Shown here in pieces: positions 3,001 to 6,000 of a DNA stretch of 6,257 nucleotides. Within the stretch, counting starts at the first letter, position 1. Each line of letters begins with the position of its first letter. The position numbers are program-made. This DNA comes from a virus (lineage: Duplodnaviria > Heunggongvirae > Uroviricota > Caudoviricetes), in the IMG/VR virus record IMGVR_UViG_2645727970_000006; one strand, 5' to 3'.

Positions 3001-6000
3001 GCCTTTGCTGGTGGCCCGTATGCGCAGCCACAGTTCTGAATATTACCGTGAGATCGTCGAACGGAGGGATCGGCTGGTGAAGGATGTCGATGATTTTGTT
3101 GCGTCAGCGGTTGTTTTGTATGACCAGATGAATCGCGGCGGCCCGGCAGGGAATGCTGTGGTGATGCACTAAAAGCACGGTGTTCGGGGGTTTTATGAGC
3201 AGCAAGCTTCATGGTCTTGTCTGGGAAGGGTGCGCCTTCACCGGCATGATCTTATCCAGGGTGGCGGTTATGGCCCGTCTTGCAGACTACAGCAATGACG
3301 AGGGCGTGTCATGGCCTGCCATTGAAACTATCCGGCGTCAGATCGGTGCAAGAAGTGAATCCACAGTGAAATCGGCTATTGCAGAACTGGCGAAAGAGGG
3401 CTGGCTGACGAAGGAAGAGCGTAAGGTCGGTGGGCGTAATGTAAGCAATATCTATCGGCTTAATGTGGAAAAACTCGAAGCAGCTGCGGCGGCGGCGCGT
3501 GAGTCATATAAACCGAAAAGAAAAATTAGCCCGGCAAAAAATGACCCGTTAACAGTTGACCCGTCAAATTTTGATGGATCAACTGTTGATAAAAAACTGC
3601 CGATTAGGGGGGCGATGATTGACCCCGATCCGTCAGTATTAAAACCTGATCCGTCAGATAAAAGATCTTCTTGTCCGGACGCTTCGCAACCGGACCCGCA
3701 GACGGCTGAACAGGATTTTTTAACCCGACACCCTGACGCGGTTGTGTTCAGTGCGAAAAAACGCCAGTGGGGAAGTCAGGAAGATTTGGTGTGCGCACAG
3801 TGGATCTGGGGACGAATCGTGAGTCTTTACGAGCAGGCGGCCAGCGATGATGGCGAGATCACTAGACCGAAAGAACCCAACTGGACAGCATGGGCCAATG
3901 ACGTTCGCACAATGCGGATGCTGGATGGCAGAACTCACAGACAAATTTGTGAAATGTTTGGGCGTCTCCAGCGGGATTCGTTCTGGGTAAAAAACATCAT
4001 GAGTCCGGCAAAACTCCGGGAAAAATGGGATGAACTGGTTATCCGCCTGGGGCGTTCGCCTGCGCAGCGTTGCGTGAATCACATTTCTGAACCGGACACT
4101 GAAATACCGCCGGGATTCAGGGGGTGACGTGTCATGAAAAACATTGCGGCAGTTGGGGTTCTTGAACGTATTCGCAGACTTGCACCACAGGGGTCGGTTC
4201 CACCGTACCGGACGGTGGAGGAGTGGCGGGAATGGCAACTTGCTGAAGGACGAAAACGCAGCGAGGAGATTAACCGCCAGAATCGCCAGTTGCGGGTGGA
4301 AAAAATCCTGAATCGTTCGGGCATCCAGCCTCTGCACAGCAAATGCTCGTTTGCAAATTATCAGGTGCAGAACGACGGGCAAAAATACGCGCTGAGCCAG
4401 GCCAAATCCATAGCTGACGAACTGATGACCGGGTGCACGAATTTTGTGTTCAGCGGTAAAACCGGCACCGGGAAAAATCACCTTGCAGCGGCGATGGGCA
4501 ACCGGCTGATGGTGAAGGGGCGCAGCGTGATTATCGTCACCGTGTCTGACGTCATGAGCGTGTTGCATGACAGCTACGACAACGGCAAATCCGGGGAAAA
4601 ATTTTTACAGGAGCTTTGCGGGGTTGATTTGCTGGTCCTGGATGAAATAGGCGTTCAGCGGGAGACGAAAAACGAGCAGGTGGTATTGCACCAGATAATT
4701 GATCGCCGGACAGCATCACTGTGCAGTGTCGGGATGTTAACAAACCTGAATCATGCCGCAATGAGTACGCTTCTTGGTGAGAGGATTATGGACCGCATGA
4801 CCATGAACGGTGGTCGATGGGTGACGTTTAACTGGGATAGCTGGCGTCCAAATGTCAGCAATATGAGGGTTGTGAAGTAATTTTGTCCGGAGGAAATTTT
4901 AATGGAAACCGTATCTGACGCACTGAAAGCACTGAAAAAAGCCTCTTCACATGTGGTGGCAGCTCGCCTTGGAATCAGTCGTGAAGAGGCTGTCAACGAG
5001 CTGTGGGAACTCAAAAGAAATGGCGTCGTTGATAAAACTGGTCACACCTGGTTTCTGGCTGGCGAAGGTGAATCCCGGGTAACCGAAGAGCGGCCAGTAA
5101 AATCTGAAGCACAGGATATGCTGACCGGGGAGGTCGAACAAAAAGTTACCGCAGACATGATGATTGAGTTTATCGGTCAGGATGGGGCTAAAACGTGTGA
5201 GGAACTGGCGGGTAAGTTCGGTGTCAGTACTCGCAAGGTTGCTTCCACGCTGGCGGTGGTAACCGCAACGGGGCGGCTGGCACGCGTTAATCAGAACGGT
5301 AAATTTCGTTACTGCATGCCGGGCGATAATTTACCAGCAGAGCCGAAAGCCGCGCTGGTAACGGAAAGTGATGGTAAGGCCTTTCCTCAGCCAGCAGGTG
5401 CTGCGTTACCAGGCCGGGAAGCCGCAACACAGGAAGAAATTAAAACAGAAACTGTGGCGGACATTGTGCAGTCGTTGCCATCGTTTACCGAAACGCAAGC
5501 AGATGAGCTGATTTTTCCGTCCCTGCGCAGGGCAAACCTGGCGCTGCGCAGGGTGAAAAGTGATGTTCAGAAGTGGGAGCGAGTCTGCGCCGCGCTGCGG
5601 GAGCTGAACAAGCACCGGGATATTGTTCGACAGATTACTGATTCTTCCCGCCGTGTTGTATCGGAAAAGTGATTGCCGGAGGCGCTTATGGCAAAAGTAT
5701 TTACACAAGAAGAGCGGGAAAAAATTAAAGGGCAGGTTGTTGAGCTAGTACGCCGGAGTGGGCGCGAGACGTTACGGCAACTGGAAGCCAAGACAGGTGC
5801 GACAAGATATCTGATGAGTGTTCTCGCCAGAGAGCTGGTTGCCAGTGGCGATGTATACAACTCTGGTTACGGGTTATTCCCGTCTGAACAGGCGCGTAAG
5901 GACTGGCAAAACGCCCGCAAAAAACTCTCAAGGGCAAATCTGAAGAAACCATCTGTGGTTGATCCTGACCTTATCTGGCCATTACCAGACGGAGAAATAC

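Follow-up and report, generated by a model that had tools for sequence, protein, structure and literature searches.

A candidate replication origin inside the initiator gene of a lambdoid Escherichia coli prophage

Introduction

Placement of a replication origin within the gene for its own initiator is known for the phages lambda and P22 and for the Shiga toxin (Stx) phages (PMC5043065, PMC7466680). In the lambda O gene, the iterons are followed by an A+T-rich region, which measures 40 bp, and then by the sequence that codes for the C-terminal domain (annotation; PMC5043065). Two lambda iterons beside the A+T region suffice in vitro, as a later paper relates at second hand (cited in PMC7466680). 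Here we consider a comparable arrangement in a 6,257-bp stretch of DNA (IMG/VR record IMGVR_UViG_2645727970_000006, hereafter the window), which represents the immunity and early-right region of a lambdoid Escherichia coli prophage and carries, in order, cI, cro, a ydaT-like gene, a replication initiator gene and a DnaC-like helicase loader gene. Judged by sequence comparison, positions 3541-3677, inside the linker-coding part of the initiator gene, are likely to be the replication origin of this initiator/DnaC-like module, and we treat them as a candidate on that footing.

We favor this reading because the repeats at 3541-3677 occupy the positional equivalent of ori-lambda, between a DNA-binding domain and a lambda-O-like C-terminal domain; because they display family-wide enrichment, DNA-level selection, unit-wise copy variation, modularity and co-variation at a distance; and because the replication genes contain no other repeat cluster, while the least stable DNA of the initiator gene is found here.

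A repeat array in the linker-coding part of the initiator gene

A sequence-only reading of this DNA had noted four to five copies of GAYCCGT(C/T)A, and the count held. The motif GAYCCGTYA has four exact matches in the window, all on the plus strand (3543, 3558, 3627 and 3648), where 0.12 would be expected by chance (the shuffle mean; none of 200 shuffles reached four), and a fifth copy is inverted at 3572-3581, reading TGATCCATCA on the minus strand with one mismatch. No other repeat cluster was found in the window's replication genes, and no exact copy of the motif lies in the window outside 3541-3656. The array and its surroundings comprise the following elements.

3499..3541, no strand: upstream A/T-rich tract, Lys-rich coding; at 71% AT, 3499-3528 ranks with the least stable 30-bp windows
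3541..3552, plus strand: distal unit 1, ATGACCCGTTAA, direct
3556..3567, plus strand: distal unit 2, TTGACCCGTCAA, direct; closest to the subfamily consensus TTGACCCCTCAA
3571..3582, minus strand: distal unit 3, inverted, TTGATCCATCAA on the minus strand; encodes FDGS, not DPS, and contains the GATC at 3577
3551..3587, no strand: 37-bp palindrome formed by units 2 and 3 (18+18 nucleotides)
3604..3616, minus strand: degenerate inverted unit TTAGGGGGGCGAT (relatives: TTAAGGGGTCAAT), low confidence, from alignment with Erwinia, Mixta and Edwardsiella loci
3619..3626, plus strand: half unit TTGACCCC, abutting the first proximal unit, from family comparison
3627..3635, plus strand: proximal unit GATCCGTCA, containing the GATC at 3627; kept in nine of nine close lineages
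3648..3656, plus strand: second proximal unit GATCCGTCA, containing the GATC at 3648, 21 bp past the first
3609..3677, no strand: zone of near-complete synonymous-site conservation, GAMIDPDPSV..DPSDKRSSCP, including the A/T tract CAGATAAAAGATCTTCTTGT and the GATC at 3664

A better description of the unit in the window's subfamily is TTGACCC(C/G)TCAA, a 12-bp near-palindrome that occurs in both orientations at a 15-bp period; single-unit sequences of the array include TTGACCCGTCAA and GATCCGTCAG. The base before each of five window units (four direct and one inverted) is T, whatever the codon. An 11-bp palindrome, TCAA-N3-TTGA, situated between the motifs as first read, was considered as the true unit and rejected because the Erwinia and Edwardsiella loci keep the C-rich center in both orientations and a GAYCCNTCA core fits better. 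All direct copies are in frame as Asp-Pro-Ser or Asp-Pro-Leu, DP(S/L), within initiator residues 116-158, in agreement with the earlier placement of the repeats in a DP-rich linker. In the repeat-finder check proposed with that reading, Tandem Repeats Finder makes no call in the window, because this allele is shortened, and does call the array in the common allele (15/30-bp). DnaA and IHF sites are not in excess; DnaA boxes (TTATNCACA, one mismatch allowed) gave four matches with 5.6 expected, and the one at 3584-3592 falls in the array and is not evidence, while the IHF consensus gave three with 6.3 expected.

The initiator and its domains

The linker that these repeats encode joins two recognizable domains, and the gene is followed directly by that of a helicase loader.

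3195..4127, plus strand: replication initiator gene, 310 residues, 'helix-turn-helix'; an open reading frame (ORF), in the same frame in RefSeq
3195..3488, plus strand: N-terminal winged-helix HTH_36 domain, presumed to bind the iterons (Pfam HTH_36, E 2e-6, residues 25-71)
3708..4064, plus strand: C-terminal domain homologous to the lambda O C-terminal domain (BLASTP)
4062..4124, plus strand: C-terminal tail like DnaT; the last 21 residues match the DnaT C-terminus (..SEPD..IPPGFRG; ..VNHISEPDTEIPPGFRG)
4134..4880, plus strand: DnaC-like helicase loader (YdaV family, DnaC/IstB-family AAA+), directly downstream of the initiator

Residues 1-310 match the full-length profile of PHROG 391, 'replication initiation O-like' (E 1e-115). 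The N-terminal part, conserved over residues 1-98 across nine relatives, also has a weak DnaD_N match; Phage_rep_O (PF04492), which lambda O and P22 gp18 match with E 1e-36 to 1e-38, was absent from the window initiator in the Pfam search, and HTH_36 was hit instead. Residues 172-290 align with lambda O 171-277 at 39% identity over 119 residues (BLASTP, E 4e-26). The lambdoid arrangement, with ori inside O, that had been proposed for this locus is thus upheld by the position of the repeats and by the C-terminal domain, though not by the N-terminal domain, which is HTH_36 rather than Phage_rep_O. The proposal that the module is DnaC-dependent also has support, in that the loader following the initiator is 80% identical to Rac YdaV (NCBIfam PRK12377, E 1e-152); against the DnaC equivalog it scores E 2e-89, under that model's cut-off.

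The DnaT-like tail may be a peptide that recruits DnaB/DnaC, and it is also present on Rac YdaU and on SfIV-type initiators without a downstream loader gene. The final initiator codons, TTC AGG GGG TGA, also contain the Shine-Dalgarno sequence of the next gene, so part of the conservation of the tail may be at the DNA level. A near-palindrome, TGACGTGTCA, at 4125-4134 spans the initiator stop before the DnaC-like start and has a TGAY-NN-RTCA skeleton, as in the units; it was dropped as a candidate, not being kept at the Rac ydaU/ydaV junction, and its resemblance to the units is probably chance.

Constraint on the repeats across relatives

The relatives compared were the common E. coli allele (L002), loci of SfIV/CPS-53 type (L004 and L007), Klebsiella phage Kp4866-6, Yersinia phage YeP2, phiP27 and an Stx2a phage, together with Erwinia, Mixta, Edwardsiella and Scandinavium genomes; a single-query scan of genome contigs gave seven close relatives, and a scan of viral contigs (IMG/VR) gave 80 loci, all with the same N-terminal domain, that were used for allele counts only. 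The N-terminal domains of the relatives are 47-78% identical to that of the window. Every one of 13 close relatives has an array of 15-bp (five-codon) period right after this domain, followed by two to three GATCC(G/A)(T/C)(C/A)A units. Across 14 loci from at least eight genera (Escherichia, Erwinia, Mixta, Edwardsiella, Scandinavium, Klebsiella, Yersinia and Stx phages), GAYCCNTCA with up to one mismatch occurs at 28/kb in the linkers and 1.26/kb elsewhere, a 22-fold enrichment on both strands.

Sites spaced at five codons within an ORF yield a linker of pentapeptide repeats, DPxxx where the unit is direct and EGxxx or DGxxx where it is inverted. Family-wide, direct units encode DPS or DPP and inverted units EGS or EGL; in Edwardsiella, where a + + - pattern is repeated, the inverted GTT GAG GGG TTA (Val-Glu-Gly-Leu) stands against the direct ATT GAC CCC CCA (Ile-Asp-Pro-Pro). 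Codon choice in the linkers departs from that in the rest of the same genes: serine is written as TCA in 81 of 128 codons (63%) as compared with 32 of 235 (14%), leucine as TTA in 15 of 29 (52%) as compared with 20 of 238 (8%), and valine as GTT in 31 of 46 (67%) as compared with 50 of 187 (27%). The most conserved stretch, the zone at 3609-3677, corresponds to residues 149-171 of L002 and 139-161 of the window protein; when L002 was compared with eight lineages, the codon was identical at 89-100% of shared residues in this proximal-pair zone, as against 28-45% in the N-terminal and 15-60% in the C-terminal domain.

Copy number shifts by whole 15- or 21-bp units. E. coli initiator alleles of 310, 313, 315, 317 and 320 residues occur, the common allele exceeding that of the window by 30 bp, or two units, and two Edwardsiella species differ by 45 bp in the array; distal units number three in the window, five in the common allele and up to nine in Edwardsiella. 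Because units are inverted, codon use is biased, synonymous sites are conserved and copy number changes unit-wise, the constraint on the repeats is a constraint on the DNA, and one that shapes the protein linker; the earlier statement that the DNA repeat dictates the protein is supported.

The array also travels with the N-terminal domain. The C-terminal domains to which this pair is joined are of at least three unrelated kinds (lambda-O-like, TIGR02220-type and phiP27 type), and what lies downstream of the initiator varies among relatives between a DnaC-like loader, a DnaC and helicase pair, and no loader. The window's DNA similarity to phage genomes begins at 3627 or 3660, at or just past the proximal units. 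In five distant HTH_36 initiators (Min27, ZF40, Vibrio phage D67, Aggregatibacter S1249 and a Morganella phage), the N-terminal domains of which are 30-40% identical, three to four dyad-symmetric repeats of 21-24 bp stand at the same place in each, with sequences that all differ. Rac ydaU, which differs in its N-terminal domain (DUF1376), likewise has mid-gene repeats of its own. This is the repeat pattern expected if the N-terminal domain and its sites co-evolve as one origin-recognition module.

Two side observations concern these relatives. In the SfIV/CPS-53-type loci, YeP2 and the Morganella phage (L004, L007, L008 and L099), a PerC-like gene and an N6-adenine methyltransferase gene follow the initiator in place of a helicase loader, the PerC-like position being filled in the Morganella phage by a small unnamed ORF; such loader-less relatives presumably rely on host DnaC. 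Just after the iteron arrays of distant HTH_36 initiators, GAACCAGTCA occurs twice, 17 bp apart and in two reading frames (..RTSH.. and ..EPVN..), and has the look of an element kept at the DNA level in widely differing phages, located as follows.

L100:1780-1807: GAACCAGTCA element, Vibrio phage D67
L101:1835-1861: GAACCAGTCA element, Pectobacterium phage ZF40
L011:2323-2332: GAACCAGTCA element, Min27

A model for initiation and points that weigh against it

By analogy with lambda, we infer initiator binding, DNA opening and helicase loading at this site. The N-terminal winged-helix domain would bind the GAYCCNTCA-core units, each a 12-bp near-palindrome TTGAC-CC-GTCAA. The variable distal array, with its 15-bp period, may be an accessory part, and the conserved proximal pair of GATCCGTCA units 21 bp apart, with the short A/T tract that follows, may be the conserved core. 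The resulting nucleoprotein complex would distort the DNA and open a short adjacent A/T tract, the most conserved candidate being CAGATAAAAGATCTTCTT, just past the proximal pair; opening is predicted at 3654-3675 or, failing that, at 3583-3600. The lambda-O-like C-terminal domain and the DnaT-like tail would then bring in host DnaB via the phage DnaC-like loader, and transcription from the cro-side promoter would pass through the site, as it does at ori-lambda.

The A/T-rich tracts noted beside the repeats by the sequence-only reading are present but moderate. The stretches 3566-3595 (77% AT), 3499-3528 and 3635-3675 fall within approximately the 1% least stable stretches of 30-40 bp in the window, and within the initiator gene no DNA is less stable than that of the repeat region.

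Several points weigh against the origin reading. The A/T-rich tracts are short (20-40 bp) and only 70-77% AT, and a clear unwinding element was not identified among them. With a 15-bp period, each site faces roughly away from its neighbor across the helix, whereas the iterons of plasmids are in helical phase. The sequences compared share descent and the units duplicate, so the enrichment and the codon counts are not independent observations. These sites were not found described in the searchable literature, coverage of which is incomplete. Furthermore, the window allele is without two distal units that approximately 99% of E. coli carriers have: only nine records reach at least 99% identity over 3195-3700, the allele longer by 30 bp is present in approximately 1500, and the 310-residue form appears in none of the 80 IMG/VR loci retrieved (same N-terminal domain). 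The copy in the window may accordingly be a weakened origin in a cryptic prophage, rather than a dead one; the two units lost are distal, and the conserved proximal core is unaffected by the deletion.

Alternative readings of the repeats

Of the readings that add to or compete with a replication origin, the one that survives best is an addition, namely that the GATC sites are a functional Dam/SeqA switch in which hemimethylation after firing blocks re-binding or sequesters the origin. We hold this possible but doubtful. The sites (3577, 3627, 3648 and 3664) do number four in 91 bp, as had been claimed for about 90 bp; both proximal units carry GAT, giving GATC, in nine of nine close lineages, and distal units carry GAC, a choice that is synonymous; across the family, GATC is approximately 2.3 times as dense in linkers as in the DNA that flanks them; in several relatives the second gene downstream is that of an N6-adenine methyltransferase; and plasmids derived from Stx phages are reported not to become established in a seqA deletion host (PMC7466680). 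The cluster is, however, only marginally unusual, since an equally dense one arises somewhere in the window in 5.7% of dinucleotide shuffles (P ~0.057), and it is not an independent signal because only the site at 3664 falls outside the repeat units; in the other three the T may be selected for initiator contact. The spacing of the conserved pair varies (12, 18, 21 or 24 bp), so that the helical phasing for SeqA is not kept. The Stx phage relative L010 has two of the GATC sites replaced by GAACC, and Min27, S1249 and lambda have no GATC in the equivalent region. With GATC forming part of one iteron variant, the earlier suggestion that its density signals methylation-sensitive control is not established.

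A further elaboration is an origin that is bipartite in a manner not described for lambda, with a fast-evolving distal array, free in number and orientation, attached to a near-invariant core. We consider this unlikely. The core would consist of the two GATC-bearing GATCCGTCA units, the short A/T tract and CTTCTTGTCCGG, and at the nucleotide level it is common to subfamilies with distinct distal repeats, C-terminal domains and types of loader. Reading of such a core by a host factor, or by Dam/SeqA gating re-initiation, beside or instead of the phage initiator would fit, and the GAACCAGTCA pair of very distant HTH_36 initiators, a comparable element, is a hint that such second elements may be widespread.

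It is also conceivable, if quite improbable, that the repeats bind the initiator for purposes of regulation (autorepression, roadblock, handcuffing or copy control), with opening and helicase loading elsewhere in the prophage. The sequence evidence for binding sites fits a non-origin binding role equally well, the adjacent A/T tracts are weak, and the cI-cro intergenic region, among others, is richer in A/T. Yet the array is positioned as are the origin mapped in lambda and the one annotated in P22, the window offers neither a second repeat cluster nor an exact motif copy beyond the array, and the most A/T-rich segments elsewhere are promoter/operator DNA or lie on the far side of cI. 

We give very little credence to the view that the repeats are functionless, a footprint of a low-complexity Pro/Asp-rich linker that changes by replication slippage. 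Unit-wise insertions and deletions do occur and the linker protein is of low complexity, but slippage cannot create inverted units that encode other peptides, and it leaves unexplained the use of the rare codons TCA and TTA, the invariant T before each unit, and the 89-100% conservation of synonymous sites in the proximal pair between genera with diverged flanking domains. Hairpins in mRNA or single-stranded DNA (for translation pausing, as an RNase site or as a primosome assembly site) can be set aside as scarcely credible: 3551-3587 does fold well as single-stranded DNA (-11.9 kcal/mol, z -5.3), but relatives share no hairpin, since their units vary in order and orientation (++-, +++--, ----++++). 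The two proximal units are direct repeats, and conservation falls on the primary sequence of the core, whichever way it points, as is typical of duplex recognition.

Genomic context and distribution

Upstream of the initiator, the window carries the genes of an immunity region.

1769-2443, minus strand: LexA/cI-type repressor gene
2535-2750: P22-Cro-like gene
2747-3172: YdaT-family gene

Downstream of the loader are DUF1627 and DUF977 genes. A near-identical chromosomal locus lies in a Qin/Rac-like prophage beside dicB, ydfB and ydfC. The region 3100-4200 of the window is matched in 3287 of 5426 complete E. coli genomes, with at least 80% of the region matched in 1512, and the module or a close relative is also carried by the working temperate phages SfII and SfIV and by phiNP and YeP2. 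A scan of 3100-4200 for promoters and terminators found none.

In the Rfam scan the sole hit was the gene for the antisense small RNA DicF, outside the repeat region at 569-620 on the minus strand (RF00039, 76.7 bits), which fits a Qin-like dicB region; beside it is a 19-nucleotide inverted repeat (412-430 / 541-559, 95% complementary). In the closest chromosomal match, strain GN02050, the DnaC-like gene (L001:7035-7781) carries an internal stop and is annotated as a pseudogene, and the copy in the window is intact; the short-allele prophage is decaying in some hosts at least. A 15,977-bp circular 'plasmid' from a dog E. coli (L106, NZ_CP148542.1) consists only of a segment running from cI, cro, initiator and DnaC-like gene through to Q and lysis, with no other replicon typed, and is either an autonomous circle similar to lambda-dv or an assembly artefact. 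Apart from this 16-kb circle, the meaning of which is uncertain, the 'plasmid' matches are prophage fragments or misassigned chromosomes.

Implications

The module is common in E. coli, and its origin, which appears to be undescribed in the searchable literature, would not surprise a specialist. A predicted origin with its recognition word nevertheless provides a direct handle for mini-replicons, and it lets one ask whether cryptic prophages still over-replicate once induced. It would likewise make replication incompatibility or cross-activation between co-resident prophages predictable. Defence systems that sense phage origins could be interpreted with its help; Lamassu, for instance, is enriched at the iterons of lambda (PMC12663957). 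The locus is, in addition, a clean example of dual coding, in which a linker owes its pentapeptide repeats to putative protein-binding words that run either way in the DNA.

Comparison with known origins

The nearest counterpart is ori-lambda, where dyad-symmetric repeats likewise lie in the linker-coding part of O (annotated iterons, codons 116-145) ahead of a C-terminal domain that begins at residue 171. The two loci share homologous C-terminal domains, a cro-side early operon, an initiator gene upstream of a helicase-loader gene and in-frame deletions of units, and the proximal core proposed here parallels the two A+T-adjacent iterons of lambda. They differ in that the DNA-binding domain is HTH_36 in the window and Phage_rep_O in lambda; in that the window has 12-bp units at a 15-bp period in both orientations, whereas lambda has four palindromes of 18-19 bp placed 20-24 bp apart; and in that the window is without a clear 40-bp A+T block, has a DnaC-like loader rather than lambda P, and has GATC in some units, lambda having none there. 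P22 resembles the window in that a rep_origin is annotated in the middle of gene 18 (NC_002371), past the N-terminal DNA-binding domain, with three copies of TCGGTAAAAC and then an A-rich tract, but gp18 belongs to Phage_rep_O and shows no significant similarity to the initiator of the window, and it is partnered by a DnaB-like helicase (gene 12).

Rac has the same operon layout, with a repressor gene, a cro-like gene, ydaT, an initiator gene and a DnaC-like loader gene, the loaders being 80% identical and the ..IPPGFRG tail shared; its initiator YdaU, however, has a DUF1376 N-terminal domain, aligns with the window initiator over the last 19 residues only, and is encoded by a gene with unrelated repeats (AAGCAGATGTTCAA). 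Rac has an active origin, oriJ (PMC3945230). In the middle of ydaU of E. coli K-12 (L005:4472-4578) are four AAGCAGATGTTCAA-like copies and TGTTCAAACA/TGTTTGAACA inverted repeats, which, at the same relative position as those of the window, are candidate iterons of oriJ; a sequence-level mapping of oriJ was not found in the literature, and we infer the parallel with Rac.

The theta plasmids P1, F, R6K, RK2 and pSC101 similarly have arrays of initiator-specific repeats beside an opening region, but theirs are direct repeats in helical phase (approximately 11 or 22 bp) with DnaA boxes, whereas here the spacing is 15 bp, the orientation mixed, the array within an ORF and no DnaA box above chance. 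At oriC and P1 oriR, re-initiation is restrained by hemimethylation-based sequestration. In such Dam/SeqA origins GATC is concentrated, and the array here also has a cluster, but one of four sites only, at marginal density and embedded in a variant of the initiator site rather than forming a separate class of repeat. What sets the window apart is the family of its DNA-binding domain, the shortness of its units (12 bp, repeated every 15 bp and in either orientation), the weakness of its A/T region and its DnaC-type loader.

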